DNA of 64,000 nt from Thermoplasmata archaeon (GCA_052325545.1 JBKQUP010000009.1:13486-77485); one strand, 5' to 3'. Counted from the first letter of the stretch, positions 2,128-62,856 are shown. Numbers and translations are program-made. Notes: generated from the sequence alone by a model not told the origin.

Positions 2128-3594
<1,467 letters not shown>

Positions 3595-3906
3595 TTTTGA
3601 GCACACGATTCGCGTGTGCGGGAATACTTGTGGTCGGAAACCGATCTTTGCTGACTGGCGGAATTGCTCTTTACGTTAGATGAGCTACTTCGCGTACGTT
3701 TCTCGTACTTGTCTCCCCCGTCAGTCCCGAGAGGTCACTCCCCGTCTCCAGGGAGGGGTTCTCAGGGCTCCACGCCCCCATTGGGCCATCTGTGGCGTCG
3801 CCTTGGAGGAGCACGGATCACGGGGTCCCCGGCTCGCCGTGGCGGCGTCGCCATGCCGCGCTTCCGAAGAAGCGGGCGTAGCGTTCGAACGAAGGGGGTC
3901 CGGTAT

Positions 3907-26568: not shown

Positions 26569-28113
26569 ATGACCGCGAGCGAGGGAAGTACCGTCGGCGG
26601 GGTGCCGGCTGAGGTGATCACCTTCCTGAGCGGGAAGGGAGGGCGGTCGCTCATCATCAAGGGCGGCGCGGGAACGGGGAAGACGACCTTCGGGCTCGAG
26701 CTGCTCGAGCGCGTCGGTCAGCCGAACCGGTCGTACTACCTTTCCACGCGTATCGGGGACGAGGCGCTGTTCCGGCAGTTCCCGTGGCTGAGGACCTCGG
26801 AGATGCGGACCCGGGTCCTCGACGCGGCGAAGCTGTTCCTCGATGCGATCCAGGCGTCCAGTCGGTCCCGGGACGTCGAGCTCCCCGAGGTCGAGGCGAA
26901 GAAGGTCCGGGCCGGCCGAGAGGTGCTCGCGAGCTTCGGCCAAGAACGCGGACCTCCGACCCGGGTCGACCGCACGCATCTCACCGCCCTCCTCAAGCGG
27001 AGCCCGATGCCCGAGGTGGAGAACGTCTACCAACGCATCGAGCGAGCCCTCCCGGAGAAGTCGCTGCTCGTCATCGACTCGCTCGAGGGTGTGACCCACA
27101 AGTACGGACTCGAGATGGAAGAGTTCGTCATGGCCCTCCAGAAGGACCTCGTCGAGGCGTCCAGCACCGACGTCGTCATGATCCTCGAAAAGCCCGAGGC
27201 GGGCGGGATCGAGTACCTCGTCGACGGTCTCATCTCCATCCAGCGCGAGGAGCTGGACGAACGACGCGTGCGCCACCTGCGTCTCGAGAAGCTCCGGGCG
27301 ACCAACATCGGGCGGGCCCGCTACGCGGTCACGCTCGACGGAGGGCGCTTCGAGGCCCTCGGGAACACTTCGGCCCCCGCCGCCGTAGCCTCGAACAGTC
27401 CGTGGAAACCGGTCACCGACGCCGAGAAGTACTACTCCACGGGCGTCCCCGATTTCGACCAGCTCCTCGGGGGTGGGTTCCGCCGAGGGAGCTTCAACGC
27501 GTTCGAGGTCGACGTGAACGTCGGCGTCGACGACTACTACATGCTGTTCACCCCCACCTTCCTGAACTTCCTCTCGCAGGGCCGGGGCATCATCGCGGTG
27601 CTCGCCGCGGGCGAGTCCCCCGACAAGCTCCGGGACACGGTGATCCGCCACGTGTCGGCGAACCAGTTCGACACGCGCGTCCGGATCCCCGACTACTCCG
27701 CGAACGAGACCGAGGAACCGTACATCCTCCCCATGGGCCGCTACGGCCGCGAGGAGGCGGCGAAGGCGATGGTGGCCGCGGAGCGGGCGGTCGCCGGACC
27801 GGACCGCAAGCCGTTCCTCGAGTACATGGCGTTCGACACGTTCGAGAGCCTCATGGGCGACCAGGTCGCGATCCGGATGTATTTCCAAGGGGTCTCGCGC
27901 ACCAAGCACGTGGGGAACCTCGGGATCGGTCTGCTGAAGCCGGGGCTCCTCGTGTCGAGCGAGATCCTGAACATGATGGACTCGTACTTCCGGATCATCA
28001 ACATCGACAGCGCGACGTGCATCTACGGGATCCGGCCGCGAACGACCATCTACGCGATCAGCCCGGACCCGGAGAAGGGCGCCCCGCACGCGACGCTCAC
28101 CCCGATCGTATAG
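26569..28113 (+). CDS. tandem KaiC/RecA-like ATPase (N-domain with intact Walker A/B, C-domain degenerate)
   Basis: GGAGTGKTTFGLELL Walker A, LLVIDSLEG Walker B; the second half repeats the fold (GVPDFDQLLGGGFRRGSFNAFEVD) but lacks a P-loop. Confidence 0.7.
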   Translation: MTASEGSTVGGVPAEVITFLSGKGGRSLIIKGGAGTGKTTFGLELLERVGQPNRSYYLSTRIGDEALFRQFPWLRTSEMRTRVLDAAKLFLDAIQASSRSRDVELPEVEAKKVRAGREVLASFGQERGPPTRVDRTHLTALLKRSPMPEVENVYQRIERALPEKSLLVIDSLEGVTHKYGLEMEEFVMALQKDLVEASSTDVVMILEKPEAGGIEYLVDGLISIQREELDERRVRHLRLEKLRATNIGRARYAVTLDGGRFEALGNTSAPAAVASNSPWKPVTDAEKYYSTGVPDFDQLLGGGFRRGSFNAFEVDVNVGVDDYYMLFTPTFLNFLSQGRGIIAVLAAGESPDKLRDTVIRHVSANQFDTRVRIPDYSANETEEPYILPMGRYGREEAAKAMVAAERAVAGPDRKPFLEYMAFDTFESLMGDQVAIRMYFQGVSRTKHVGNLGIGLLKPGLLVSSEILNMMDSYFRIINIDSATCIYGIRPRTTIYAISPDPEKGAPHATLTPIV

Positions 28114-28775: not shown

Positions 28776-28858
28776 GGCGCGCTCGAGGCCTCCTATGGGT
28801 CGGAAGGCAGAGCCCGCCGGCCGAGAAAGGTTTTCTTGCCGGAGCGCTCGACCGCTAC

Positions 28859-29320
28859 GTGAAGGTCACGGTCCTCGTGGGGTCGAAGTCGGACCTCGAG
28901 GTCGCCGAGAAGGTCCGGGCGCGCCTCGCGGAGTTCTCCGTTCCGTGCGAGGTCCACGTGGCCTCCGCGCACCGCACGCCCGAGAAGGTCGACCGGCTCG
29001 TCCGCGACCCGGCGACCGACGTGTTCATCGCGATGGCCGGCCTTTCGGCCGCGCTTCCCGGCGCGGTCGCGGCCCGGACATTGAAGCCGGTGATCGGCGT
29101 CCCGCTCCATCGGGGCCTCGGCCTCGACAGCCTCCTCTCCGTCGTCCAGATGCCCCCCGGAATTCCGGTGGCGGCGGTCGGGCTCGACGCCGCGGAGAAC
29201 GCGGCGCTCCTCGCGACCGCGATCCTCGCCCTCAAGTATCCGGAGCTCACGGCCCAGCTCGAGAAGTACCGGGCGAAGTGGCACGAGGAACCGTCGGCGT
29301 CCTCGGGGAGCTCGGGATGA
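28859..29320 (+). CDS. purE: N5-carboxyaminoimidazole ribonucleotide mutase (PurE)
   Basis: GTG start verified; VLVGSKSDLEV...ASAHRTP...GLSAALPGAVAARTLKPVIGVP...SLLSVVQMPPGIPVAAV matches PurE. Confidence 0.9.
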   Translation: MKVTVLVGSKSDLEVAEKVRARLAEFSVPCEVHVASAHRTPEKVDRLVRDPATDVFIAMAGLSAALPGAVAARTLKPVIGVPLHRGLGLDSLLSVVQMPPGIPVAAVGLDAAENAALLATAILALKYPELTAQLEKYRAKWHEEPSASSGSSG

Positions 29321-30264
29321 ACGACCCGGCCGCGTTCGTCGAGGAAGCCGTCCGCCGCCTTCGCGCCGATGTGGCCGAGCGGACGATCGTGGCCGCTTCG
29401 GGCGGGATCGATTCGACCGTCGCCGCGCTCCTCGCCCACCGGGCGCTGGGGGACCGGGCGAAGGCGATCTTCGTCGACACGGGCATGCTGCGCGCGGGCG
29501 AGGTGGAGCAGGTGGGTCGGTTCTTCGCTGCGAGCCACCTTCCCTACGAGCTCGTGCCCGCGGCCGACCTCTTCTTCGAGGCGCTCGCGGGCGTGGCCGA
29601 CCCCGAAGAGAAGCGACGTCGGATCGGGGCGGCGTTCGTCCGGGTCTTCGAGACGGAGGCCGACAAGTTCCATTGCGACCGGCTCATCCAGGGGACGATC
29701 GCGCCGGACTGGATCGAGAGCGGAGGGGCCCTCCGGGACACGATCAAGACCCATCACAACGTCGGCGGGATCCCGAAGGACATGCGGCTCACGCTGGTCG
29801 AGCCGCTTCGGGACCTCTACAAGGACGAGGTGCGGGCCGTCGCGCGCCATCTGAATATCCCGGAGTCCGAACGCCAGCCGTTCCCCGGTCCCGGTCTCGC
29901 CGTCCGGGTGAACGGACCGATCACCCGGGAGCGGGTCGAGCGCGTGCGGGTCGCGAACGCGATCGTCGAGGAGGAGGTCCAGCGCGCGGTCGAGGCGAAG
30001 GAGATCGCCCGGCCGTGGCAGTATTTCGCGGTGCTCCTTCCGGTCCGAACGGTCGGCGTCACGGGCGACAACCGGGTGCACGGTGAGGCCGTGGTCGTCC
30101 GGGTCGTGGAATCGGTCGACGCGATGACGGCGACCGCGATGGCCCTCCCGCGCCCGGTGCTCTCTCGGATGTCCGAGCGGATCACCCGGGCGCTGGCGGG
30201 CGCCGTGGTCCGAGTCCTCTACGACGTCACCGACAAGCCGCCCGCGACCATCGAGTGGGAATAG
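29317..30264 (+). CDS. guaA: GMP synthase subunit B (ATP pyrophosphatase domain)
   Basis: ATG 29317 overlaps the purE stop (ATGA). SGGIDSTV PP-loop, KTHHNVGG, C-terminal ...YDVTDKPPATIEWE dimerisation motif. No GATase subunit adjacent. Confidence 0.9.
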   Translation: MNDPAAFVEEAVRRLRADVAERTIVAASGGIDSTVAALLAHRALGDRAKAIFVDTGMLRAGEVEQVGRFFAASHLPYELVPAADLFFEALAGVADPEEKRRRIGAAFVRVFETEADKFHCDRLIQGTIAPDWIESGGALRDTIKTHHNVGGIPKDMRLTLVEPLRDLYKDEVRAVARHLNIPESERQPFPGPGLAVRVNGPITRERVERVRVANAIVEEEVQRAVEAKEIARPWQYFAVLLPVRTVGVTGDNRVHGEAVVVRVVESVDAMTATAMALPRPVLSRMSERITRALAGAVVRVLYDVTDKPPATIEWE

Positions 30265-30325
30265 CGGCCGCCCGCCCCGAAGGGAATATCTATCGCACCC
30301 ATGCTCGCGCTCCGAGGATGAGCTC

Positions 30326-30553
30326 GTGACCGAGAAGTCCCCCCCGTCCGAACCGACGCGCTCGGTACAATTACCGGCGGAGCTCGTGGCGGCGCTCGAG
30401 GAGCGGTTCCGCGGCACCTCGTTCGAATCCGTGGACGCGTTCATCGCCTTCGTTCTCGCTCGCCTTCTCGACAAGCCCGGGACGACCGGGTTCAGCGAGG
30501 AGGAGGAGCGGGGACTGAAGGAACGCCTGCGCTCCCTCGGGTACATCGACTGA
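30326..30553 (+). CDS. small ribbon-helix-helix-like protein (hypothetical)
   Basis: 75 aa, GTG start; SVQLPAELVAALEER... beta-strand/helix pattern. Confidence 0.4.
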   Translation: MTEKSPPSEPTRSVQLPAELVAALEERFRGTSFESVDAFIAFVLARLLDKPGTTGFSEEEERGLKERLRSLGYID

Positions 30554-30562
30554 GCGGCGACC

Positions 30563-30862
30563 ATGGACCCCCCGACCGGTGCAACGAGCGCGCTCGTGTG
30601 TCCGTTCTGCGGAGCCCCGGAGACCGACCGCTTCACGCTCGAGGGCCACCGGTTCCTCGTGTTCCGGTGCCTGTTCTCCCCCCAGGTCGAGGAGGGGCTC
30701 ACGGACGACGAGGTCGGCGAGCGGCTGCGCGCGTTCGCCGCCGAGCAACCGACCTACTTCCGCGGGACCTGCGACCGCCTCCACCTCTACGTGACGAAGG
30801 GGGAGGGGGCGCGCCGGTTGGGAGCGGAACCGGCCCCCGATACACCCTCGAAGGACCCGTAG
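30563..30862 (+). CDS. small Cys-containing hypothetical protein (CPFCG zinc-ribbon-like)
   Basis: 99 aa; a 9-nt gap after the preceding small ORF suggests co-transcription. Confidence 0.35.
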   Translation: MDPPTGATSALVCPFCGAPETDRFTLEGHRFLVFRCLFSPQVEEGLTDDEVGERLRAFAAEQPTYFRGTCDRLHLYVTKGEGARRLGAEPAPDTPSKDP

Positions 30863-40549: not shown

Positions 40550-41110
40550 TCAGCGGTCGCGCTCGACCGGCTCGTCGAGACGCCACTCCGCGAACCCCCG
40601 GCCGCCCGAGGTCCGTCGGACCGAGCGCACCACGCCCGACCACCGCACGTCGGGCGGGAGTTCGCCGGAATCGATACGGTCGAGGACCGTCCGGAACCGA
40701 AGGCGGAGGTCGGAGAACGGGTCCTCCTCGCCGGGCCGGACCCAGGAGCCGGCCGCGCGGACGACGCGGACGGTGCCTTCGTGGGTGGCCCACACGCCGA
40801 CGCGAGAGGCCCTGGTCCCGTCGGTGCGGGCCGCGAGCGCCGCGGCGGCCTTCTCGGACGGCAGGACGACCGCGACCCAGTCCCCCCACGCGCGCCGCTT
40901 GAGCGCCTGCACGAGCACCGCGCGGCTCCCGGAGACCTTCGCCTCGACGAGGCCGACCTCGTCCCCCCGCCGGGCCACGAGGTCGAAGTAATCGGCGGAG
41001 TCCGGGTTCGGATAGACCCGGTAGCCTTGCTGCTCAAGGAAGGTCGCGGCGGTCCGGACGACCTCTTTTTCGGAGACCCGGGGCGGGCGAGGTGCCGCGG
41101 CGCGGCTCAC
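40550..41110 (-). CDS. PD-(D/E)xK nuclease-fold protein, Hjc (Holliday-junction resolvase)-like N-domain with about 90-aa C-terminal extension
   Basis: GTG at 41110 overlaps the mutL TGA (GTGA). EKEVVRTAATFLEQQGYRVY...DYFDLVARRGDEVGLVEAKVS reproduces the E...D...ExK pattern of Hjc-type resolvases. The track ORF 40550..41662 is a frame-extension into mutL. Confidence 0.5.
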   Translation of the reverse strand: MSRAAAPRPPRVSEKEVVRTAATFLEQQGYRVYPNPDSADYFDLVARRGDEVGLVEAKVSGSRAVLVQALKRRAWGDWVAVVLPSEKAAAALAARTDGTRASRVGVWATHEGTVRVVRAAGSWVRPGEEDPFSDLRLRFRTVLDRIDSGELPPDVRWSGVVRSVRRTSGGRGFAEWRLDEPVERDR

Positions 41111-42873
41111 GGACCGCTCCTCAGGAACCAGCGGTCGAGGCGCGACCGGGGGATCCCGAGCACGATCGGGCGTCCGTGGGGACAGGAGTAGGCCGCTTCG
41201 GGAAGGGCGTGCAGCGTCGTGAGCACGCGGGAGAACTCCTCCGACGTAACAACGTCCCCCGCCCGAAGGGCCGCGTGGCAGGCGACGGTCGCGGCGCGTC
41301 GCTCCTCGAGCCCGTCGGGGAGCGTGGGGCGCCCACCGGTCGCGAGCTCGTCCAGGAGCTCCGCGACGGCCTCGGGCCGCGCGGACCGGCCCCGGTATGC
41401 GGGGACCGACCGGACGAGGAACGACTCGGGACCGAACGGCTCGATGTCGAATCCCGCGGCCCGGACCGTCTCGCCGTGGGCTTCGAACGTGCTTCGCTCG
41501 GCGCCCGTGAGACGGACGGTGACCGGAGCGACCAGGGTCTGTCGCTGCAGGGTCCCGGAGTGGCGCAGCTCCTCGTAGAGCACGCGCTCGCTCGCCGCGT
41601 GCTGGTCGATCAGCACGAGGCCTTCGTCGCTCTCGGCCACCCAATAGAGGGCGTGAAGGCACCCAAGCAGCGTGAGCCGCGGATGCCCCGCCGCCGCCGG
41701 AAGCGGGGTCGGGGGTGGGGGCGCGGCGACCGGACCTTCCAGGGTACGTTGGACGCCCGGATGTCCCGCGGAGGCCGTGGGGACGCCTCTCACCAGGGGC
41801 GGCGCGCCTCCGAGGGGCGGTCGAGCCGCGGCCCGGGCGGCCGGAAGCTCCGCCACCTGGGGGGCGGAGACGAGGGCCTCGCGGACGCGCAGCCGGATGG
41901 CGTCGAGGATGTCCCGTTCGCGGGCGAAGCGCACCTCGCGTTTCGTCGGGTGGACGTTCACGTCGAGCCGGTCGGGGTCGACCTCGAGATGGAGGACGCC
42001 CACCGGGAACCGGGTGCGGGGCAGGTAGTCGCCGAAGGCGAGGCGGACGTTCTGGGCGATCGTGCGGGAAGTGACCGAGCGGCCGTTGACGGCGACGAAC
42101 AGTCCTCGCGACGAGGCGGCCGCCACCCCGGGCCGGCCGAGCGACCCGAAGAGACGGCCCCCGGGGATCTCGGCGGAAAGCTCGAACGACGACGTGAGGA
42201 ACCCGGGGCCGAGGACCCGGGCCGCGGCGTCCTTCAGGTCGTGGGCGGGGGGATACGTTCCCGCCTCGCGGCCCTCCGATTCCACGCGAAGGCCCACCTG
42301 CGGACGCGCGAGGTAGAGACGCTCGACCGTCTGCAGCACCTCGACCTGCTCCGCGGGAGCGCCTTTGAGGAACTTGCGCCGGGCCGGGGTGTTGAAGAAG
42401 AGGTCCTCGACCTCGACGGTCGTCCCCGGGGCCCGCGGGGCGGAGAACCGACCGGCGACCGCCCCTCCGACGACCGAGATCCCCTCGGCGACCTCCCGGT
42501 CGGGGGGCCGGGAGAAAAGGCGGAACCGGGAGACCGAGGCGATCGCCGCGAGCGCCTCCCCCCGGAAACCGAGGGTCCCGATCCGCTCGACCGGACCTTC
42601 CGGCGGGAGCTTGCTCGTGGCATGCCGCTCGACCGCGAGCTCGAGCTCCTCCGGCGGGATCCCCGACCCGTCGTCGGCGACCTCGATCCGCTCGAGCCCC
42701 CCGCCCGAGAGTCGGATCGTGACGAGCGAAGCGCCCGCGTCCACGGCGTTCTCGACGAGCTCCTTCACGACGGACGCCGGGCGTTCCACGACCTCGCCCG
42801 CGGCGATCCGCTCGACCGTTTCGCTCGAGAGCTTCCGGATCGGCCGACGCGAGTTGGGGGGCGGCGTCGTCAC
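41107..42873 (-). CDS. mutL: DNA mismatch repair protein MutL (endonuclease-type, DQHA(x)2E(x)4E motif present)
   Basis: 588 aa; GHKL ATPase N-domain (ELVENAVDAGA); C-domain LIDQHAASERVLYEEL. The GTG start overlaps the mutS TGA (GTGA). Confidence 0.9.
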   Translation of the reverse strand: MTTPPPNSRRPIRKLSSETVERIAAGEVVERPASVVKELVENAVDAGASLVTIRLSGGGLERIEVADDGSGIPPEELELAVERHATSKLPPEGPVERIGTLGFRGEALAAIASVSRFRLFSRPPDREVAEGISVVGGAVAGRFSAPRAPGTTVEVEDLFFNTPARRKFLKGAPAEQVEVLQTVERLYLARPQVGLRVESEGREAGTYPPAHDLKDAAARVLGPGFLTSSFELSAEIPGGRLFGSLGRPGVAAASSRGLFVAVNGRSVTSRTIAQNVRLAFGDYLPRTRFPVGVLHLEVDPDRLDVNVHPTKREVRFARERDILDAIRLRVREALVSAPQVAELPAARAAARPPLGGAPPLVRGVPTASAGHPGVQRTLEGPVAAPPPPTPLPAAAGHPRLTLLGCLHALYWVAESDEGLVLIDQHAASERVLYEELRHSGTLQRQTLVAPVTVRLTGAERSTFEAHGETVRAAGFDIEPFGPESFLVRSVPAYRGRSARPEAVAELLDELATGGRPTLPDGLEERRAATVACHAALRAGDVVTSEEFSRVLTTLHALPEAAYSCPHGRPIVLGIPRSRLDRWFLRSGP

Positions 42874-45497
42874 GGGGGCTCCTCCTTCGGGGACGACCCG
42901 ACGGATGCCCGGCGCTTGAGATCGCGCAGCGTTCGGGCGGCTTCCTCAGGACCGAGGTGTTCGAGGTCGAGCTGCCGGAGCTCGTCGACCACCGGGTGTT
43001 CGGAGGCTCCCTCCGAAAGCAGCACCGCCTGGGTGTACCGCGGCCCGCGACGGCGAGAGCCCTTCGGAGCCGTCGGCACGACGCTTTCGGTCTCGAGGCG
43101 ATGGAGAAGGCGTTCGGCCTCCTCGAGGACCCCCTCCGGGACCCCCGCGAGGCGCGCCACGTGAACGCCGTAGCTCCGGTCGGTCGCGCCCGGAACCAGA
43201 CGGTGGAGGAAGACGATCCCTTCCGGGCCCTCGTGGACGGCGAAGTGGGCGTTCTCGGCCGCCGAGAGCCCCCGGACCAGGTCGGTGAGCTGATGGTAGT
43301 GGGTCGCGAGCAGGCAACGGGCCCGGGTCGCGTCGTGCAGGTGCCTCAGCGTCGCCCAGGCGATCGCGAGCCCATCGAACGTGCTGGTACCACGACCCAC
43401 CTCGTCGAGCAGGACGAGGGACCGGGCGTCGGCCGAGCGCAGGATCTCGGCGACCTCGCTCATCTCCACCATGAAGCTCGACTTTCCCCGGCCGATCTCG
43501 TCCGTGAAGCCCATCCGGGTGAACAGCTGGGTGACGAGGCCGATCCGGGCGAACTTGGCCGGCAAGAACGACCCCGCCTGCGCGAGGACGACCAGGAGGC
43601 CGACCTGGCGCATGTACGTCGACTTCCCCGACATGTTCGGGCCGGTCAGCACCAACATCCGTCGCCGGTCCGGGTCGAGGTCCAGGTCGTTCGGGACGAA
43701 CGATTCCCCGAGGACCCGGTCGAGCACCGGATGGCGCCCGTCGCGCACCACGAGGACCGAGGAATCGTCGACCGTGGGCCGGACGTAGCCTCGGGTCTGG
43801 GCGAGGTGCGCGAACGTGGCGAGCGCGTCCAGCTCCCCGACGGCGCGGCTGACCCGGTGGACCGCCGGTACGTGACGTTCGACGGAATCGAGGAGCTCCT
43901 CCCAGCGGGTCGCCTCGGCGGTCTTGATCCCGTCCCGCGCTTCCAGGATGCGTCGCTCGATCTCCTCGAGCCGGTCCGACGTGAACCGCTCGGCCTGGGC
44001 GACCGTCTGGCGCCGGCGGAAGTGCGGCGGGACCCGGGCCAAGTGGGGCTTGGTGACCTCGAAGTAGTAGCCGAAGACCTGGTTGTAGCCGACCTTGAGC
44101 GTCCGGATGCCCGAGGCCTCTTGCTCGGACCGCTCGAGGGCGGTCATCTCGCGGAGCGCCGAGCGCTCGGCGTCGCGCCACCGGTCCACCTCGGGGGCGT
44201 GGCCGGGCCGGAACAGCTCGCCCTCGTCCTGCGTGGCCGCGGGATTCTCGGGCAACGCTCCGGCGAGGAACGGGACCAGCCCGGGCGGGGGGGCTAGCTC
44301 CCCGGCGAGCATCGTGAGCCGGACGGAGGACCCACCCTCGGTCAGGCTGCGGCCGAGCGCTTCCGCGGCCTCGAGGCCGGCCCGCAGCGCCACGAGCTCG
44401 GCCGGTCGTACCCGGCGCCCGGCGACCCGGGCCGCGATGCGAGAAAGGTCCGGGACCGACTTGAGCCGCGCGCGCCATCCTTCGAGGGCGGCGCCGCGGT
44501 CGACGAGCGACTGCACCGCGTCCTGACGAACGGCGATCGCCGACGCGTCGGCGAGCGGGTTCGTCAACCAGAACGCGAGCGTGCGCCGGCCCGGGGCGGT
44601 TACGGTCTCGTCCCAGGTCCCGAGAAGGGTGACGCCTTTCGCGTCGTCCGGGTTCATCGGCCGGTTGATCTCGAGGTGTCGGAGCGTCTTCGCGTCCAGA
44701 ACGAGCCGCCGTCCCCCCGCGCCCCGCTCGACGAGGTCGAGATGGGGAAGGAGGCGGGGCTGGGTCGCCCGCAAATAGGCCGCCAATCGGCGGTCGGCCT
44801 CGAGGACCTCTTCGGCCAGGTCCGCTTCACCGCGGAGAGCGCTCGGGAGCTCTCCGGCGACGGCGGGAGCTGGGGCGGCCTCGAGCCGAGCGGACGGGAA
44901 CTCGCGTCGCAGGGCGGCGACGAGAGGGGGTGCCGCCGACTCCTCCCCGACGGCCCATAGGATCTCGCGCGGCTGGAACGCGGCGAGGGAGGAGACGATA
45001 CCCTCCGCACCGTGCCCGTCCGCCGACCCATGGTACCATTCTCCGGTGGTGATGTCGACCGCCGCGTAGGCTCCGAGCTTCCGGGTCGGGGCGACGACGC
45101 TGACGAGGAAGCTGTGGTCGGAGCCCCCGAGGATGCGGTCCTCGACCGCCGTGCCCGGCGTGACGACCCGCGTGACCTCCCGCCGGACCAGGCCCTTCGC
45201 GAAGCGCGGGTCCTCGACCTGGTCGCAGATCGCCACCTTGTAGCCCTTCCGCACGAGACGACCAAGGTACGTCTCCACCGAGTGGTGGGGAACGCCCGCC
45301 ATCGGGGTCCGGACGCCCTGGGCGTCCGCGGCCCGGGCGGTCAAGACCACGTCGACCTCGCGCGACAGGAGCCGCGCGTCGTCCCCGTAGGTCTCGTAGA
45401 AGTCCCCCACGCGGAAGAGCACGAGGTGGCCGGGGTACCGTGCCTTGACACCCTCGTACTGTTCTAGCAGAGGGGTCAGGGGCAGCGGTTCGGGCAT
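42870..45497 (-). CDS. mutS: DNA mismatch repair protein MutS (bacterial MutS1 type)
   Basis: 875 aa, ATG verified; TGPNMSGKSTYMRQV Walker A; N-terminal mismatch-recognition domain. Confidence 0.9.
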   Translation of the reverse strand: MPEPLPLTPLLEQYEGVKARYPGHLVLFRVGDFYETYGDDARLLSREVDVVLTARAADAQGVRTPMAGVPHHSVETYLGRLVRKGYKVAICDQVEDPRFAKGLVRREVTRVVTPGTAVEDRILGGSDHSFLVSVVAPTRKLGAYAAVDITTGEWYHGSADGHGAEGIVSSLAAFQPREILWAVGEESAAPPLVAALRREFPSARLEAAPAPAVAGELPSALRGEADLAEEVLEADRRLAAYLRATQPRLLPHLDLVERGAGGRRLVLDAKTLRHLEINRPMNPDDAKGVTLLGTWDETVTAPGRRTLAFWLTNPLADASAIAVRQDAVQSLVDRGAALEGWRARLKSVPDLSRIAARVAGRRVRPAELVALRAGLEAAEALGRSLTEGGSSVRLTMLAGELAPPPGLVPFLAGALPENPAATQDEGELFRPGHAPEVDRWRDAERSALREMTALERSEQEASGIRTLKVGYNQVFGYYFEVTKPHLARVPPHFRRRQTVAQAERFTSDRLEEIERRILEARDGIKTAEATRWEELLDSVERHVPAVHRVSRAVGELDALATFAHLAQTRGYVRPTVDDSSVLVVRDGRHPVLDRVLGESFVPNDLDLDPDRRRMLVLTGPNMSGKSTYMRQVGLLVVLAQAGSFLPAKFARIGLVTQLFTRMGFTDEIGRGKSSFMVEMSEVAEILRSADARSLVLLDEVGRGTSTFDGLAIAWATLRHLHDATRARCLLATHYHQLTDLVRGLSAAENAHFAVHEGPEGIVFLHRLVPGATDRSYGVHVARLAGVPEGVLEEAERLLHRLETESVVPTAPKGSRRRGPRYTQAVLLSEGASEHPVVDELRQLDLEHLGPEEAARTLRDLKRRASVGSSPKEEPP

Positions 45498-45523: not shown

Positions 45524-45531
45524 CATATAAT
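45524..45531 (-). promoter_or_regulatory. TATA box (minus strand ATTATATG) about 30 nt upstream of the mutS ATG; leaderless promoter
   Basis: Isolated AT octamer directly after the tRNA-Ser 3' end. Confidence 0.4.
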
Positions 45532-45556
45532 CCAATTCAGCCGGCGAGAGGCGGGA

Positions 45557-45640
45557 CGCTGAGGGGGAGATTTGAACTCCCGTGGCGGAACCGCCACCAG
45601 CTTTCAAGGCTGGCGCCTTGCCGGGCTAGGCTACCTCAGC
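45557..45640 (-). tRNA. tRNA-Ser (anticodon UGA), class II with long variable arm
   Basis: Manual fold: acceptor GCTGAGG/CCTCAGC, D-arm GCCT-AGCCCGGCA-AGGC, anticodon arm CCAGC-CTTGAAA-GCTGG, variable arm GGCGG-TT-CCGCC, T-arm GGGAG-TTCAAAT-CTCCC, discriminator G. Confidence 0.85.
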
Positions 45641-45706
45641 GCATCGGGCAGAGCGGAGCCGGGAGGAATAAACCCTCCCTTTGGGAGGGGGTCCGGGGCG
45701 GAGGAG

Positions 45707-45808
45707 TGCAGGTGCCGGGACATCCGCGCGAGACCTGGTCGGGTCTCGCGTTTCGAACCCGGGTAGTCAGCTTGGAGGGCTGACATCCTACCACTAGATT
45801 ACACCTGC
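45707..45808 (-). tRNA. tRNA-Gly-like (anticodon UCC) with about 31-nt non-canonical intron in the T-loop; unusual C33
   Basis: Manual fold: acceptor GCAGGTG/CACCTGC, D-arm ATCT-AGTGGTA-GGAT, anticodon arm TCAGC-CCTCCAA-GCTGA, T-stem CCGGG/CCCGG enclosing TTCGAA + hairpin insert (CGCGAGACC-CGA-GGTCTCGCG) + T, discriminator A. Confidence 0.55.
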
Positions 45809-47080: not shown

Positions 47081-48016
47081 CTACGGGCTGCCCGGTTCGG
47101 GCGCCGTGGTCCGGCGACCCGTGACGGCGTCGAGGACGACCCGGCCCTGGGACCCCTCGGCGTACCAGTGCGGCACGTAGAGCAGGACGAACGGCCCGAG
47201 CCGGATGTCGTCGGCGGAGGGCGGGACCCGACGGGTCTCGATGACGAGCGCTCCCTGGTGCTGTTCGGTGTGGTCGACGTGGACCGTATGGTGCCGGCGG
47301 ATCGCATCGAGCGCGAGCGGGACGACCTGGGACTCGTCGAGCTGGGGAGAGAGCCGCTGGTGCGGTTCGCTGAGGTCCGCGATCAGCTCGCGGTCGCCGT
47401 CCGCCCAGATCTCGGCGCGACGGGTGACCGAGTTGACAGCGACCAGGTTGCGGACGACCGCGCCATGGCCTCCGTCGGGAGAGGCCGGGCGGACGCGATA
47501 GGCCGCGACGAAGAACGGGACGAGCCGCAGGGTGGACCGGGGGCCATCCACACCGGCGAGGGTCTCCGCTTCCGACCGGTCGATCCGAGGCCGCACCGTC
47601 CGCTCGCCGTGGGGCGCGATCGCGAACGGCGGCTCGAGCGGGCCCCCGGGGTCCGCATCCACGGGCGAAAGCTCCGCTCCGGCGGGCGGTAGGAGCAGGA
47701 TCTCGCCGAGGCCGGGACCGAGGGTCGATGGGTCGAGGACCTCGATCCCCCGGTCGGCGGCGAGCGCGCGCGCGACCTCCCCGGGTTCGTCGTCGTAGAC
47801 GATCGTGCGGTGGATGCTTTCCGAGGGAAAGAACGCCTCGATGTCGGCCGGGGACCGGGCGGCCGTGAGGATCACCACGGCCCGTCGGTCGCGCCCGCGG
47901 ACCGCCACGAGCGTGTCCTGACGGACCTCGACGCGGTACCCGGCCGCCTCGAGGAGCTTACCGAGGACCGAACCGGGCGGCCCGCTGCGGGTCATCAGGC
48001 TGCGGACGCGCGCCAT
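47081..48016 (-). CDS. hypothetical protein (N-terminal region weakly restriction-endonuclease/Mrr-like)
   Basis: 311 aa, ATG verified; no confident family assignment. Confidence 0.4.
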   Translation of the reverse strand: MARVRSLMTRSGPPGSVLGKLLEAAGYRVEVRQDTLVAVRGRDRRAVVILTAARSPADIEAFFPSESIHRTIVYDDEPGEVARALAADRGIEVLDPSTLGPGLGEILLLPPAGAELSPVDADPGGPLEPPFAIAPHGERTVRPRIDRSEAETLAGVDGPRSTLRLVPFFVAAYRVRPASPDGGHGAVVRNLVAVNSVTRRAEIWADGDRELIADLSEPHQRLSPQLDESQVVPLALDAIRRHHTVHVDHTEQHQGALVIETRRVPPSADDIRLGPFVLLYVPHWYAEGSQGRVVLDAVTGRRTTAPEPGSP

Positions 48017-52503: not shown

Positions 52504-55500
52504 GTGAAACACTTGGTTCGACAGCAGTACCGCGCCGCTCTGTGGGTCCTGGTACTGGTCGCGCTCGTGACGAGCTCACTGGCCGCGATCGCCGGGGCTC
52601 AGGCCGCGTCTTCAGCGAACTACACGCTGAGAGGCTATGTGGAGCAGGGACCGACCGTGGGCTACGCTCCGGTCGCGGCGGGTGTACAGGTCGACCTCGT
52701 ATCCCGGGCGACGGGCCAGGTCTTTACGACCACGGTCGCAACCGGCGGGAGCTACACGTTCACCACCACCAGCACGGGCGGGGCCTTAGTGCCCGGCTAC
52801 TGGGGGGTCTGGGTTCCGCCGCAGGGGAATGTCAGCCTTTCGGGCTGTGGCGGGGCGAAGCCCTTCTACCAGTGCGCCATCCTCCCCGCGGACCAGAACC
52901 CGACCTTCCAGTTCGAGAACGCGACGGCGCTCACGACCACCTACTACCCGGTCACCATCACGGGCGTCTCGCAGGTTCCCTACACTAGTTCGGTCTCGGG
53001 GACGGTCAGCACCAAGGTCCCCGGCGCTCAGGTCTCTCTCCTCGACCCGTACTACAACGGGCTCTCTCTCGTGAACAATACGACCGCCGCGAACGGGTAC
53101 TTCAACTTCAACGCCCCAATCTCCACCGGCTACGCGCCGGCGGGGGGTTGGGTCGTCAAGACGGTCGTACCTGGGTCGCCTCCGCAGTACAACTTCACTC
53201 AGGTCGCGATCCCGAGCACCGCCCAGGTCACGGTCAACCCGAGCATCCAATCATACATCGTCTCGGGCTACGTCAACCAGTCCGCACACCCATCGGCTCA
53301 CGTTCCCACCGCCGGTAATGTCACGCTGTTCGACCCGACGAGCGGCTACCTCTACTCGAGCGCCACTCCCCCCGGAGGGTACTATTCGGCCGGGACGTAC
53401 GGGACCAACTTCGGGAGCGGCTCACACACGTTCGACCTGGTCCTCTCGTCGATCGGCTACGGGACCGTTTGGTACCCCCTAACGGTGAGCACCCCGAGCC
53501 CCGTCCAGCACAACTTCCTGGCGTCCCCGCTAGCCCCGAGCCAGCTCGGGAGCTTCCAAACGACGCTCAACTTCTCCGGAATCAACGTCGCGAGCGGCTC
53601 CGGTAATCTCGCGGTCAAGACGGTGGCCACGCTCGGCAACGACACGGTCTTCCCGAACCTTCCGAACGCGACCGTCGGCCAGTTGTGGGCGCAGCTCGGT
53701 CTCGACTTCAATCACTCGATCATCTTCCCGAGCACGATGCTGCCCACGGTGACGAGCTGGGTGAACTCCACCGGGCCATTCTTCCCGGCGGTCCAAGCTC
53801 AGACCACGGTCAACGGCACCGGGTTCGTCGGACCCGCCGCGCCGGAGACGCTCGCCAGCTGGGCCTCCACCTGCTCGGGCGCGTGCGACCTCTCCACGAA
53901 CGCGAACCTGACCTACCAGTGGTCGGAGAGCTACGGTCTCAACGGGTCGGTCCCGATCAACGGGACCACGTACTCGATAGCGTTCGGCTTTGCCCACCCC
54001 GCGTCGAGCTCGGACGTCTACAACTACACGCTCGTGCTGCCCAGCGGCTACGTTCTCGCGGCCGACACCCAAGCCCCCACGGGCACGCGCCTCTCCGCAG
54101 CCGGAACGGGAGGGACATGGACGAGCTTCACCCTCCAATCGCTCCCCAGCACTTCCTCCGTCGGGACCGCCAAGTTCTCGATCGTGAAGTACTCCGCGCT
54201 GACCCCGATCGTCAACGCCACGGTGTCGAACTTCGCGTTCTCGAGCCACAACGTCCTCAACAGCACGCAGAAGAACTACACCGTTGAGGTCGGTGTGGGT
54301 CAGAACGTGACGTTCAGCGCCCTCAACTCCCTCTATCCGGCGGGGACGAACGGGACGAAGTTCTCGTGGGCGTTCGGCGACGGCGCGACGGCCAACTCGA
54401 CCACCGCGACCACGAACCACACCTACGCGGCGGCGAGCGGCTCGAGCCCCTACCCCGGGAAGCTTACGGTCACCAGCTCGGGAGGACTCACGAACTCGAC
54501 CCCGTTCTTCGTGTGGGTCGCGCAGGGGCCGGTGACCCCAAAGATCTCGGTGAACTCCACGGCGAGCCAGAACAAGACCGCGGGGTCGACCTCCTACGTG
54601 TTCGTCAACTGGGGGACCGTCCTCCACTTCAACGCGAGCCAAAGCTCGGCCACGGTCAGCTCCTCGACCGGAGTGGCGGGCGTCCTATCGGTCGCGTCGT
54701 TCGCGCTGGTCTCCTCGGGCGGATTCAAGCAGACCGCGAACTACTCGGTCGGGCAAGGGGCCAACTTCTGGTCGAACTTCACCGTCCAGTTCCTTGGGGC
54801 GGGCTACTACCTCTCCACGGGAACCGTGGGCGGCACGGCGGTCCCGATCAAGGGCTGGCAGTACAACCTCACCTTGACCGTCTGGTCCGGGACCGGCCAG
54901 ATGGCGAAGACCACGCTCGACATCCTCGTGAACGACACGCAGAAGCCCACGTCGGCGTTCCAGGTGCTCACCACGGGCGGCAAGGCCGTCACGGGTAGCG
55001 GAGTGGTCGCCGGAACGAACCTCTCCGCGAACGTCCTCCTGAGCGGGGCGAACGCGACCGACCCGCACAACGGGTCCATCGTGAAGTACTACTGGCTCGT
55101 CACGAACTCGCAGAACGCGTCGTTCCACCAGGGCGTGAACGTCACGTCGGTGAAGCCGTATCCCTCGTTCTGGATGCCCGCTTCGACCAACCCCTACACG
55201 GTCAACCTGACGGTGTGGGACCTGAACCAGAACTTCGGGTACACGACCCAATCGCTCACCGTCTCGCAGAACACGACCACGAGCCCCATCATGGCCGCGA
55301 AGAACCTCACGGGCCCGTCGAGCATCTCGGACGGGTCGTCCGTGACGTACTGGGTGAACATTACGGTCGGCGGTGGTTCAAAGGCGGTCGCGGACGACGT
55401 CTCGGTCGCGTTCTACCTGCTCTCCCCGAGCGGCGGAGGGAGCCCGAACTACATCGGCGGCTCTCCGGGCTCCGTGCAGTTCTTCAACTACACCTCGCCC

Positions 55501-55887
55501 GGGGTCGTCAACACGGTCTCGTTCGCCACGGGGAGCATCGCGAGCCTCGCGTACAACACGACCGTGCGCGCGGTGGTCACCTGGACGCCCGGGATCACGG
55601 GTAACTACGTCCTCTACGCGAACGTGACGGCGGCCAACGAGTTCTCGGGCGACTACACGAACGGGCCGAACGTTGCGACGATGTCCATCTCGATCGGACC
55701 GAACCCAACGACCCAACTGCTCGAGTACGTCGCGATCGGGGTCGCGGTCGTCGTGGTCATCCTGCTGCTCATCCTCTACTACCGCCGCCGCACCGGAAAG
55801 GGCGGCGCGAAGGGCGGGACCCCGAAGTCGGGGCTCGAGCGCTCCAAGCGCCCGGCGGACGAAGACGACGAGGACGACGACAAGTAG
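52504..55887 (+). CDS. large secreted surface glycoprotein (S-layer candidate): signal peptide, CarboxypepD_reg-like and PKD-like domains, C-terminal TM anchor plus charged tail
   Basis: GTG start after a TATA box (GCTATATGT, about 52441); N-terminal hydrophobic signal; more than 50 N-x-S/T sequons; WAFGDGATANSTTATTNHTY PKD signature; C-terminus VAIGVAVVVVILLLILYYRRR...PADEDDEDDDK. Confidence 0.8.
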   Translation: MKHLVRQQYRAALWVLVLVALVTSSLAAIAGAQAASSANYTLRGYVEQGPTVGYAPVAAGVQVDLVSRATGQVFTTTVATGGSYTFTTTSTGGALVPGYWGVWVPPQGNVSLSGCGGAKPFYQCAILPADQNPTFQFENATALTTTYYPVTITGVSQVPYTSSVSGTVSTKVPGAQVSLLDPYYNGLSLVNNTTAANGYFNFNAPISTGYAPAGGWVVKTVVPGSPPQYNFTQVAIPSTAQVTVNPSIQSYIVSGYVNQSAHPSAHVPTAGNVTLFDPTSGYLYSSATPPGGYYSAGTYGTNFGSGSHTFDLVLSSIGYGTVWYPLTVSTPSPVQHNFLASPLAPSQLGSFQTTLNFSGINVASGSGNLAVKTVATLGNDTVFPNLPNATVGQLWAQLGLDFNHSIIFPSTMLPTVTSWVNSTGPFFPAVQAQTTVNGTGFVGPAAPETLASWASTCSGACDLSTNANLTYQWSESYGLNGSVPINGTTYSIAFGFAHPASSSDVYNYTLVLPSGYVLAADTQAPTGTRLSAAGTGGTWTSFTLQSLPSTSSVGTAKFSIVKYSALTPIVNATVSNFAFSSHNVLNSTQKNYTVEVGVGQNVTFSALNSLYPAGTNGTKFSWAFGDGATANSTTATTNHTYAAASGSSPYPGKLTVTSSGGLTNSTPFFVWVAQGPVTPKISVNSTASQNKTAGSTSYVFVNWGTVLHFNASQSSATVSSSTGVAGVLSVASFALVSSGGFKQTANYSVGQGANFWSNFTVQFLGAGYYLSTGTVGGTAVPIKGWQYNLTLTVWSGTGQMAKTTLDILVNDTQKPTSAFQVLTTGGKAVTGSGVVAGTNLSANVLLSGANATDPHNGSIVKYYWLVTNSQNASFHQGVNVTSVKPYPSFWMPASTNPYTVNLTVWDLNQNFGYTTQSLTVSQNTTTSPIMAAKNLTGPSSISDGSSVTYWVNITVGGGSKAVADDVSVAFYLLSPSGGGSPNYIGGSPGSVQFFNYTSPGVVNTVSFATGSIASLAYNTTVRAVVTWTPGITGNYVLYANVTAANEFSGDYTNGPNVATMSISIGPNPTTQLLEYVAIGVAVVVVILLLILYYRRRTGKGGAKGGTPKSGLERSKRPADEDDEDDDK

Positions 55888-60397: not shown

Positions 60398-61270
60398 CTA
60401 CGCGCGCCCGCTCTTCTGGAGTTCGAGCAGGTCCTCGGTCGATACCTTCTCGCCCTTCTTCAGACGGGCGAGGAAATCCTCCTCCTTCGGCGGTTCGGCC
60501 TCGCCCCACGTCTGGGGGGCCCGGCCGCCGCGGGCGGCGTAGAGCATTTTCTCGAAGTCGCGGACCTCTTCGATCGCGGCGATATGAGCGCGGTGCGCCT
60601 CGTCGGCCTGGGCCTTCACCTCGAGGAGGTGGGCCTGGACCTCGTCCGCCTGGCGTCGGAGCGCGTCCACGGACTCGTAGAGCACGACCATCGCCTCGTG
60701 CTCGCGCTGAGCGTCTTCGGCGAGCTTCCCGACGGCCGCGTGGTGGGCCTCAGCCTCCGTGCGCGCCTCGGCGAACTCCTTCAGCGTCTGCTCGACCTCG
60801 GGGTCCTGCCGGAGCTGGTCGTCCTGCTCCCGGATCGAGGCCTCGAGGCGCTTCATCTCCTCGATCAGCCGCTTCTCCTGGTCGCCCGTGAGCGCCGTGG
60901 TCATGTGGCGGAACTCGAGCTCCTTGAGCTCCTTGCGGAGGCGCCAGACGGGCACCGCGCCCGGCCTCGGCTGGCGGGTGCGCTTGAGCTCCTGGACCTT
61001 GTCCCCGAGCTCCTGGAACTTGCGGTTCCACTCCTCGCGGAGACGCTTTTCCTCGCGGACCTGCGCGTTGAAGGTGTCGCGAAGGCGACGGTGTTCCTGG
61101 GCCTCGGCGCTCTTGTCGTGGAGCTCGTCGAGGATATTGGACCGGGACTCCGCCGTCGTCCGGGCGTCCGCGTTCAGCCGGTCGCGCTTGGCGCGCGACT
61201 CGTCGGCCTTCGCGTTGGACTCTGCCCGCTTCCGTTCAAGTTCTTCGATTGCGTCGTCGGTCAAGGCCAC
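60398..61270 (-). CDS. archaeal coiled-coil protein (COG1340-like), 290 aa
   Basis: Essentially continuous heptad-rich E/K/R/A composition; GTG start. Confidence 0.6.
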   Translation of the reverse strand: MALTDDAIEELERKRAESNAKADESRAKRDRLNADARTTAESRSNILDELHDKSAEAQEHRRLRDTFNAQVREEKRLREEWNRKFQELGDKVQELKRTRQPRPGAVPVWRLRKELKELEFRHMTTALTGDQEKRLIEEMKRLEASIREQDDQLRQDPEVEQTLKEFAEARTEAEAHHAAVGKLAEDAQREHEAMVVLYESVDALRRQADEVQAHLLEVKAQADEAHRAHIAAIEEVRDFEKMLYAARGGRAPQTWGEAEPPKEEDFLARLKKGEKVSTEDLLELQKSGRA

Positions 61271-61395: not shown

Positions 61396-62856
61396 ATGAT
61401 TTGCCCCGTGGACGAGGTCGGCCGCATCTACGGTGACGTAGGGCTGGGTCAGTTCCACCTCAGCCTCTCCCAGCCCGTCGAGCGGGGCGACTACCTGGCG
61501 GTCGAGGACGAGCTCCACGGGAAGGTCCTCTGCCAGCTGGACGACCTGAAGCGCAAGAGCGACCTCGGACTCGAGGCGGCGGGGGCGCTCAAGCCGACGG
61601 AAGAGGCTCCAATCCACGAGAACCTCCTCGGGCTGGTCCGCATCATCGGCTACCGGGACGCCCGGGGGATCGTGAAGATCCCGACCATCCCCTTCCGGCC
61701 GGGGGCCCACGTCTTCCGGGCCGATGAACCGCTCATCGCCGAGGTGCTCGGCCTGAAGCACCGGCCGAACTCGGGCGCGTACGTGGGGTTGCTGCGGAAC
61801 CACGCGATCCACGTCGAGCTCGACATCAACCAGCTCGTCCAGCGGCACGTGAGCGTGCTCGCCAAGACCGGCGGCGGGAAGAGCTACCTTCTCGGCGTCC
61901 TCATCGAGGAGCTGCTCCGCCACAAGGTGACGTGCGTCATCATCGACCCGCACGGGGAGTACGGCTCGCTGCGCATGTCCGCGGAGCCGAACGGCGGCAA
62001 CGCACGGTTCGGGGTCTCCGCCCAGGGGTTCGCGAAGCAGGTCCGGGAGTTCTCGCCCGATGCCACCCTGAACCCGGGGGCGAAGCCGCTCACCTTCTCG
62101 CTCCACCACCTCGACCCGCGCGAGCTGCTGGTGTTCATGGGCCTCACGAACGTGAAGACGTTCCTCCCCCCCCTGAAGCAGATCATCGAGCGGGTGAGCG
62201 TGGCCACCCCGGACTTCACCGTCCACGACCTCGTTCGTGCGGCCGAGGTGGGAGAAGGGGCCGTCGCGGACACGCTCCACGAACGGCTCGAGTACGTCGA
62301 GCAGACGAAGCTCCTCGGCCCCCAGGGGACGAGCCTGAACGAGCTCGTGAAAGAGGGCGATGCGACCCTCATCAACCTGCGCGGCGTCGCGGTCGACATC
62401 CAGGAGCTCGTGGTCGCCCGGATCGCGGCGACGCTCTTCGACAACCGCAAGCGGGGGAGGATCCCGCCGCTCTTCCTCGTCATCGAGGAGGCGCACAACT
62501 TCGCCCCCCAACAGGGTCAGGTGACGAGCTCGCGGGTCCTGAAGAACATCGCGAGCGAGGGGCGGAAGTTCGGTCTCGGACTATGCGTTGTCACGCAGCG
62601 CGCGGCTCGCATCGACAAGAACGTCCTGTCCCAGTGCAACACGCAGCTGATCTTGCAGGTCACGAACCCGCTCGACCTGAAGGCGATCACCCAGTCGATC
62701 GAGGGGCTCACGAACGGGATGACCGAGATGATCCAATCGCTCCCCGTCGGAGTGGCCCTCATCACGGGCGGCGGCTACCACACGCCCCTCTTCTGCGAGG
62801 TCCGCCCGCGCTCCACCCGGCACGGCGGCGAGAGCGTCCAGGTCGTCGCGGCCTGA
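61396..62856 (+). CDS. HerA-like DUF87 ATPase (FtsK-HerA superfamily; HAS-barrel plus RecA-like domain)
   Basis: ATG verified; VLAKTGGGKSYLLGVLIEELL Walker A, LFLVIEEAHNF Walker B, arginine-finger region CVVTQRAARID. Confidence 0.8.
   Translation: MICPVDEVGRIYGDVGLGQFHLSLSQPVERGDYLAVEDELHGKVLCQLDDLKRKSDLGLEAAGALKPTEEAPIHENLLGLVRIIGYRDARGIVKIPTIPFRPGAHVFRADEPLIAEVLGLKHRPNSGAYVGLLRNHAIHVELDINQLVQRHVSVLAKTGGGKSYLLGVLIEELLRHKVTCVIIDPHGEYGSLRMSAEPNGGNARFGVSAQGFAKQVREFSPDATLNPGAKPLTFSLHHLDPRELLVFMGLTNVKTFLPPLKQIIERVSVATPDFTVHDLVRAAEVGEGAVADTLHERLEYVEQTKLLGPQGTSLNELVKEGDATLINLRGVAVDIQELVVARIAATLFDNRKRGRIPPLFLVIEEAHNFAPQQGQVTSSRVLKNIASEGRKFGLGLCVVTQRAARIDKNVLSQCNTQLILQVTNPLDLKAITQSIEGLTNGMTEMIQSLPVGVALITGGGYHTPLFCEVRPRSTRHGGESVQVVAA

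Follow-up and report, generated by a model that had tools for sequence, protein, structure and literature searches.

A bacterial-type mutS-mutL operon with a conserved third gene for a predicted PD-(D/E)xK nuclease in soil Thermoplasmata archaea

In a 64,000-nucleotide (nt) stretch of DNA from a Thermoplasmata archaeon (GCA_052325545.1 JBKQUP010000009.1:13486-77485; referred to below as the window, with positions counted from its first letter), the mismatch repair genes mutS and mutL are followed by a third gene, here called X, whose product has the modelled fold and the invariant catalytic residues of a PD-(D/E)xK nuclease. Overlapping stops and starts mark mutS-mutL-X as one translationally coupled operon on the minus strand, and X is strictly linked to mutL in related loci. 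X is tentatively taken here for an accessory nuclease of an archaeal MutS-MutL pathway, a reading that is given somewhat less than an even chance and that would imply a role in mismatch repair, nuclease activity, and tethering to a partner.

How a bacterial MutS-MutL pair works after its transfer into archaea is the question on which X may bear. The presence of mutLS in Lutacidiplasmatales has already been published, the third gene not being mentioned, and there are no repair-gene tables in the supplements of that study (PMC9287336). Searches of the literature turned up no archaeal nuclease gene described as linked to MutL. What is new here, as read from sequence comparisons, is that the MutSL module has a fixed nuclease partner not described before, and their association suggests a functional link. 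X, coupled to mutL across the whole of an abundant soil-archaeal order, is a cloneable candidate for a missing partner of MutSL, and its family would link cellular repair genes to the replication modules of viruses or mobile elements. If X is only a passenger, the gain is still a well-documented operon of three genes, probably leaderless, and an uncharacterised family of nucleases.

Organization of the mutS-mutL-X operon

The operon and its control elements are placed as follows.

45524-45531, minus strand: TATA box ATTATATG, 30 nt upstream of the mutS ATG, read from the sequence
42870-45497, minus strand: mutS, 875 amino acids (aa), bacterial MutS1 type (TIGR01070, NF003810, Pfam)
42870-42873, minus strand: mutS/mutL overlap GTGA, in which the mutL start GTG overlaps the mutS stop TGA
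41107-42873, minus strand: mutL, 588 aa, endonuclease (nicking) type (TIGR00585, Pfam)
41107-41110, minus strand: mutL/X overlap GTGA, in which the X start GTG overlaps the mutL stop TGA
40550-41110, minus strand: gene X, 186 aa, GTG start, predicted PD-(D/E)xK nuclease of a family absent from Pfam

The 4-nt mutS/mutL overlap is found in 63 of 67 related loci, and the mutL/X overlap (RTGA or TTGA) in 71 of 78, including locus L080, whose X is 39% identical to that of the window. The TATA box lies just downstream of a tRNA-Ser(TGA) gene (45554-45641). Among about 60 related loci, nearly all have an ATTATA(T/A) box at a constant distance from the mutS ATG; it is kept with or without tRNA-Ser upstream, and the flanking DNA is GC-rich and otherwise variable. 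By sequence comparison, the recurrence of the overlaps and of the TATA box across loci is far beyond chance. Since the position of the box and the overlaps are conserved across loci, a leaderless or near-leaderless tricistronic mRNA is well supported by comparison, and the operon is probably expressed in this way from the predicted transcription start. Both the chain of GTGA overlaps joining the three genes and a probably leaderless start from this TATA box had been proposed from the window alone; they are present there and, as the counts above show, recur well outside it. A Shine-Dalgarno site was considered as the basis of the coupling and dropped, the GGAG ahead of X not being conserved among loci.

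The motifs that identify MutS and MutL are listed below.

45393-45407, minus strand: MutS Phe-X-Glu mismatch motif GDFYE
43620-43643, minus strand: MutS Walker A GPNMSGKS
43386-43406, minus strand: MutS DEVGRGT
42550-42570, minus strand: MutL ATPase motif GFRGEAL
41572-41607, minus strand: MutL endonuclease motif DQHAASERVLYE (aa 423-434)
41524-41541, minus strand: MutL clamp-binding-type QTLVAP
41275-41283, minus strand: MutL ACH
41167-41184, minus strand: MutL CPHGRP

As judged from profiles and motifs, mutS encodes a bacterial-type MutS1 with intact Walker motifs. It scores 813.5 bits against TIGR01070 (mutS1; cut-off, 641.7) and 850 bits against NF003810, and the Pfam domains MutS_I, III, IV, and V are matched, with domain II weak. 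MutL scores 477 bits against TIGR00585 (cut-off, 180), matches HATPase_c_3, DNA_mis_repair, and MutL_C, and is assigned by its full signature (DQHAASERVLYE together with ACH and CPHGRP) to the endonuclease, MutH-independent type. In bacteria, a MutL with the endonuclease motif goes with the absence of MutH. The sequence-only reading had described an archaeal MutS1 of bacterial type together with a MutL of the nicking type, and the TIGR and Pfam matches, the motifs, and the archaeal 16S rRNA gene in the window bear this out.

Fold, active site, and family of protein X

The predicted catalytic residues of X are encoded at the following positions.

41069-41071, minus strand: catalytic E14
40982-40984, minus strand: catalytic D43
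40937-40945, minus strand: catalytic E56-x-K58, to which Q68 is added

An alignment of 19 homologues sharing 58-90% identity has 55 invariant positions (numbered from the start codon), E14, D43, E56, K58, and Q68 among them, and these five residues stay invariant across cellular and virus-like members of the family at approximately 25% pairwise identity. The AlphaFold2 model of X (predicted local distance difference test, pLDDT, 83.6; predicted template modelling score, pTM, 0.80) has an alpha-beta-beta-beta-alpha-beta core formed by helix 13-26, strands 30-33, 43-47, and 50-56, helix 61-70, and strand 77-82 and rounded off by helix 85-94; beyond the core come a beta-hairpin (104-117), two helices, and then a tail of lower confidence. 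The top Foldseek matches of the model are all PD-(D/E)xK nucleases. Thus, the modelled protein can be assigned with confidence to the PD-(D/E)xK nuclease fold with an intact predicted active site. The E...D...ExK signature noted in the sequence-only reading is borne out, and so are the roughly 90 aa that follow at the C-terminus.

Comparison with family databases gives no closer placement. No Pfam family reaches its cut-off with X (the sub-threshold matches are VpsR, E = 0.03, Hjc, 0.042, and Mrr_cat, 0.059), and 20 diverse members of the X family searched against Pfam do no better, with no family beyond such weak ones at E <= 1. YraN is matched in NCBIfam at 1e-3, a YraN-family protein, 3FOV, in a profile search of the PDB at 3e-3, and PHROG 12193, of unknown function, at 8.9e-6. 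The weak match to VpsR could be taken to mean that X binds DNA or acts in regulation and has merely retained the restriction-endonuclease fold, and PD-(D/E)xK folds are indeed sometimes recruited as DNA-binding modules. However, invariance of E14, D43, E56, K58, and Q68 at such low pairwise identity is not expected in an inactivated fold, and a non-catalytic X is very improbable.

Foldseek finds no solved structure at E < 1e-3 in the PDB, where PaqCI (4.9e-3), Sulfolobus Hjc (1e-2), AF1548, and YraN come closest. In BFVD, 11 matches pass 1e-3, all of them predicted viral structures whose protein names are annotations, the functions behind the names not being experimental. The best of these is "Gp1.5" of an uncultured marine phage (8.3e-7). 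Next, at 2.7e-5 to 6.7e-5 and with a template modelling (TM) score of up to 0.67 over about 146 columns, are entries named "MmcB family DNA repair protein"; they come from Acidovorax phage ACP17 (2.7e-5), Dickeya phage JA13 (5.3e-5, TM 0.67), and a member of Podoviridae (6.7e-5, TM 0.63). Phage proteins of the Gp1.5 type and those annotated as MmcB-like are the nearest structural neighbours of the X model, and the alignments (about 145-197 columns) span most of its "C-terminal extension". This part had been taken for an extra domain added to the nuclease. Because most of it aligns with phage proteins, some of them annotated as MmcB-like, in the models it appears to be an element of a fold common to these proteins and not an appended module.

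MmcB-like proteins and X are both small stand-alone PD-(D/E)xK nucleases of repair type; MmcB is not linked to MutSL, whereas X lies within the mutSL operon. The MmcB-like family, which we take to be Pfam PF06319, was not among the Pfam matches at E <= 1 in the 20 X family members. In Caulobacter, MmcB is an SOS-regulated PD-(D/E)xK endonuclease that confers resistance to mitomycin C and crosslinks and acts in crosslink repair, not in mismatch repair (PMC9578287). Homology of X to MutH, Vsr, or NucS was also considered and dropped: none of the three is among the top 50 PDB structure matches of X, and NucS gives no Pfam or NCBIfam match for X. In databases, members of the family are named "hypothetical protein" or, in two members from JGI, "Holliday junction resolvase". 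On the evidence of the profile searches, X defines a protein family absent from Pfam and is not an orthologue of Hjc.

X and the Holliday-junction resolvase Hjc

The name given by JGI points to a further explanation, namely that X is the housekeeping Holliday-junction resolvase of this lineage, which has taken the place of the canonical Hjc and is carried along in the mutSL operon. Hjc (PF01870; structures 1GEF, 1HH1, and 2WCW) and X indeed share a small alpha-beta-beta-beta-alpha-beta core in which helix 1 bears the Glu, strand 2 opens with the Asp, and strand 3 carries ExK, with a spacing of 13 residues from D to ExK in both. In the PDB, the best matches of X include solved Hjc structures, and there is the weak Pfam match to Hjc. 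However, the latter reaches only 14.2 bits (E = 0.042) against a cut-off of 21.1, and a hidden Markov model (HMM) built from four Hjc sequences meets X at E = 1.5. A profile of 120 genuine Hjc sequences gives no match at E <= 1 for any of the approximately 150 copies of X. The solved Hjc structures match at E >= 1e-2, in contrast to 8e-7 to 7e-5 for the phage proteins. Moreover, X is about 50 aa longer than Hjc (186 aa versus approximately 120-140 aa), adding the beta-hairpin, the two helices, and a conserved tail, and, unlike Hjc, it is encoded in the mutSL operon. A phage-like contig with a relative of X also encodes the resolvase RusA.

The presence of a second hjc was examined as well. None was found in the 64-kb window with the four-sequence HMM or in 1.66 Mb of related loci with the 120-sequence HMM, which would suit a displaced Hjc; since every one of these loci covers the same syntenic region, the absence says little. 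A synthetic arginine-rich Hjc probe alignment run against a database of 5.8 billion proteins returned 1487 proteins, and the 120 listed all carry PF01870; those named or inspected are from Methanosphaera, Methanobrevibacter, and haloarchaea, and none is on a contig known to bear X. To our knowledge, Hjc is near-universal in archaea, other Thermoplasmata included, which also speaks against its replacement here. A resolvase role for X is, on balance, improbable. The sequence-only reading was, therefore, right about the operon and the nuclease fold, but "Hjc-like" proved too specific: the likeness holds at the level of the superfamily and the catalytic layout and fails at that of the family, phage proteins being closer in structure than Hjc.

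Linkage of X to mutL

A word-indexed protein search groups the homologues of X into 357 clusters. In an exhaustive profile search, 95 representatives were found at E <= 1e-3, of which 23, of about 160-200 aa, lie below 1e-30. Wherever a GTDB locus extends upstream of X, the order is mutS-mutL-X. A search of metagenomes with the most divergent cellular X sequences as seeds gave 80 loci, and in all 71 that extend more than 300 nt upstream, MutL ends at the start of X. Overall, X is linked to mutL in all of about 150 related loci, and nowhere in this set does a cellular X stand apart from mutL. The sequence-only reading had left room for a non-nuclease fold, for lost catalytic residues, and for an adjacency unique to one genome; what was found is a nuclease fold, invariant catalytic residues, and mutL-nuclease adjacency in every one of these loci.

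The linkage is kept where the proteins have diverged strongly from those of the window, X being 40-47%, MutL 46-61%, and MutS 47-67% identical (loci L078-L081, L085-L095, L128, and L149; in L149, the values are 40%, 47%, and 47%). In one divergent lineage (L078, 2327-3202), mutL and X are separated by a gene for a 291-aa GNAT acetyltransferase, and stop and start overlap at either junction. The pair mutL-X is also kept where the downstream neighbour, a GT4 glycosyltransferase gene, is lost (L109, L140, L163, and L164). Thus, two features go beyond the background synteny of the region, namely the preserved start/stop overlap and the survival of mutL-X after the loss of GT4.

Distant relatives and the C-terminal tail

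Distant homologues of X (E = 1e-11 to 1e-4; 190-310 aa; about 25% identity) retain E, D, ExK, and Q-A..R, and they share an invariant Leu within a C-terminal QxxLxxF. One of them is encoded immediately downstream of an MCM helicase gene (L165, 838-3847), another on a 38.6-kb Logan contig, in an array of small genes that all run one way, together with RusA, YopX, and a DUF5131/radical-SAM protein, and a third near a phage-type ParB-methyltransferase gene. By their gene contexts, these relatives appear to belong to viral or mobile-element replication modules. When the virus-like group was used as a profile, the search found only six proteins. IMG/VR scans with the cellular X, with P0156, and with the virus-like subgroup gave zero matches, so that the label "viral" rests on gene context and on the PHROG and BFVD matches.

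The C-terminal end of X carries one further feature.

40568-40606, minus strand: X tail motif GGRGFAEWRLDEP (aa 169-181), a candidate short linear motif from alignments

The C-terminal consensus SGGRGFxEWRLDEP is strongly conserved (in the window, SGGRGFAEWRLDEP), and L178 is invariant, the virus-like relatives with their QxxLxxF included. In the deeper cellular branches, the tail reads xWRL[DE]E[FLY], in the clade of the window, EWRLDEP. The pLDDT of the tail is 55-76 in the AlphaFold2 model. A short linear motif is suggested by where the tail lies, by its conservation, and by the lower confidence of the model there. By analogy with the boxes of PCNA-interacting proteins (PIP boxes) and with NucS, it is a candidate motif for binding the sliding clamp (PCNA) or another partner. 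Actinobacterial NucS is activated via a C-terminal clamp-binding motif, [E/K][L/Y][T/R]LF (PMC8228993), which E-W-R-L of X resembles. Set against the PIP-box pattern Qxx[LIM]xx[FY][FY], which lies near a terminus, the motif is non-canonical, E-W-R-L-D-E-P of the window having no Q and no terminal aromatic residue.

Possible role of X

The most likely history would be the capture of a nuclease from a mobile element and its fixation directly behind mutL. The captured X would now be co-transcribed and translationally coupled with MutL, made in step with it, and would act together with it. From the fold and the conserved residues, X is predicted to be a Mg2+-dependent PD-(D/E)xK DNA endonuclease. 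In the pathway proposed, MutS would recognise the mismatch, MutL would be loaded, and X would then be recruited via its C-terminal W-R-L-D/E-E-(F/P) tail to either the sliding clamp or MutL; once recruited, it might cut or process DNA by strand incision, by excision, or by cleavage of branched heteroduplex intermediates. The activation of restriction-fold nucleases by MutL in E. coli, where MutH and Vsr are its targets, may serve as a parallel. Archaea have PCNA and not the beta clamp. An archaeon with imported MutSL would, then, have no bacterial clamp and perhaps no bacterial excision helpers. X is favoured as an accessory nuclease because it would be made together with MutL, because MutL activates nucleases of this kind, and because the bacterial clamp and helpers would be lacking.

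A stronger proposal, which seems rather unlikely, makes X a third core component of the archaeal MutS-MutL machine, originating from a virus or mobile element, activated by MutL or the clamp, and supplying incision/excision or heteroduplex rejection. In bacteria, the incision and excision steps are carried out by MutH or by UvrD together with exonucleases. If true, this proposal would explain how imported bacterial repair works on an archaeal replisome.

Several observations weigh against X as an accessory nuclease. MutL carries its own endonuclease site, so that the need for a second nuclease is not obvious. The Shine-Dalgarno-like GGAG ahead of X consists of codons for the MutL C-terminus and varies among loci, and the tail of X in the clade of the window has P in place of the final F and no Q such as a canonical PIP box would have. 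MutL and MutS change more slowly than X, as the identities given above indicate. Finally, the whole neighbourhood is syntenic over the same lineages as the mutL-X linkage; for this reason, adjacency of mutL and X alone is weak evidence of shared function, and the very stable gene order of the Lutacidiplasmatales lineage weakens guilt-by-association arguments there.

The faster divergence and the synteny also suit another explanation, in which a nuclease from a mobile element was domesticated as X and has its own part in replication, recombination, or damage repair, for example, in crosslink repair of the MmcB kind or in the processing of flaps and branches at the replisome. X would be co-transcribed simply because it came to lie behind mutL in an ancestor, gene order in this lineage being very stable, and the linkage may be inertia. 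In line with this, relatives without MutS and MutL occur in replication modules (the MCM locus L165, the RusA/YopX contig, and the ParB-methyltransferase setting), and some of the structural neighbours resemble MmcB, a protein of crosslink and not mismatch repair. However, the 4-nt mutL/X overlap is retained in 71 of 78 loci, deep branches too, mutL-X outlasts the loss of the X-GT4 linkage, and a cellular X away from mutL is absent from about 150 loci. We regard such a bystander role as the main rival but somewhat less likely, and the accessory nuclease of the MutS-MutL pathway is tentatively retained as the preferred reading.

Genomic setting of the operon

A full-length archaeal 16S rRNA gene at 2128-3595 (minus strand) shows the window, with an overall GC content of about 69%, to be archaeal. 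The related GTDB loci are entitled "Thermoplasmata archaeon", except for one "Thermoplasmatales archaeon" and one "bacterium" (L022), and take in UBA184, UBA61, and AcS/SubAcS soil metagenome-assembled genomes. This places the window in the TMEG/Lutacidiplasmatales lineage described in PMC9287336; it is core chromosome of a high-GC soil Thermoplasmata archaeon of this lineage (UBA184). No 23S or 5S rRNA match lies within the 64-kb window, and the 16S rRNA gene is flanked by protein-type open reading frames (ORFs) at 1251-2141 and 3907-4659, so that the rRNA genes appear unlinked.

The operon is surrounded by housekeeping genes for RNA polymerase large subunits, alanyl-tRNA synthetase, FttA/aCPSF1, succinate dehydrogenase, Cdc48, and a Cgi121-like protein, with a proteasome subunit also in the block of related loci. 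No mobile-element or defence signatures were seen near the operon, and a reading of it as a defence system was dropped, as PADLOC gave no hits on the window. The GC content at third codon positions (GC3) of the module genes is 0.89-0.91, the same as in housekeeping genes, X in frame having 0.91. Recent horizontal transfer, which the sequence-only reading had wished to see checked by composition, left no sign in this test and was dropped; since the module is found throughout the order, any transfer would be ancient.

The syntenic block runs through metallo-beta-lactamase, Cgi121-like, tRNAs, mutS, mutL, X, the convergent GT4 glycosyltransferase, and phosphodiesterase. Read in the opposite direction over about 32200-52400 of the window, the stable order is succinate dehydrogenase, proteasome (in related loci), FttA, phosphodiesterase, GT4, X, mutL, mutS, tRNAs, Cgi121-like, metallo-beta-lactamase, a 311-aa ORF, and Cdc48; it is kept in loci L001-L164, across the order and beyond.

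On the upstream side, a tRNA-Gly(TCC) gene (45706-45808, minus strand) adjoins tRNA-Ser(TGA) and the mutS promoter. It is interrupted in the T-arm/T-loop region, a non-canonical intron position, by a hairpin-forming insert of about 31 nt (approximately 45720-45750). The interrupted gene is missed by ARAGORN and by Rfam at the gathering threshold, and ARAGORN finds a 72-nt tRNA-Gly once the insert is cut out in silico.

Elsewhere in the window, a HerA-like DUF87 ATPase gene (61396-62856, plus strand) and its divergent partner for a DUF7121 protein (60398-61270, minus strand) may form a DNA-processing or defence-type pair. A KaiC/GvpD-like P-loop ATPase (26569-28113, plus strand) has GvpD_P-loop, KaiC ATPase, and GvpD_bR2 domains, with gas-vesicle genes not nearby. 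The 1127-aa protein encoded at 52504-55887 (plus strand) has a single PKD domain, and the first-codon-position GC of its gene is 0.52 versus 0.62-0.85 in the other called ORFs. Two conserved ORFs, at 28855-30702 (minus strand, 615 aa) and 47081-48016 (minus strand, 311 aa), are without a Pfam match.

Comparison with known systems

MutH and Vsr of E. coli are nickases with a restriction-endonuclease fold that are activated by MutL, and vsr is translationally coupled to a neighbouring gene. They share with the proposed X the arrangement of a small PD-(D/E)xK-type endonuclease acting downstream of MutS-MutL and provide a precedent for the proposed mechanism. In contrast to these systems, MutL here has its own endonuclease motif, and no specific sequence or structural similarity between X and MutH or Vsr was found.

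NucS/EndoMS, the mismatch endonuclease of archaea and actinobacteria, resembles X in having a PD-(D/E)xK catalytic domain and a short C-terminal motif, which binds the clamp in NucS and is a candidate for this in X. The two differ in architecture: NucS has an N-terminal mismatch-binding domain followed by a C-terminal RecB-like nuclease, whereas X is without that domain, and its nuclease is N-terminal. Moreover, NucS usually occurs in place of MutSL, and X occurs alongside it.

Archaeal mutSL genes are regarded as bacterial imports and have been described in Haloferax as operons of two genes (PMC7776575). Deletion of mutS and mutL did not raise the mutation rate in Halobacterium, while an unpublished observation cited in the same paper is that it does so in Haloferax (PMC7776575). 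The mutS1-mutL operons of haloarchaea and methanogens (PMC7776575) are, like that of the window, bacterial-type, acquired, and operonic. They are described as consisting of two genes, whereas in the lineage of the window a third, coupled nuclease gene has become fixed in the unit.

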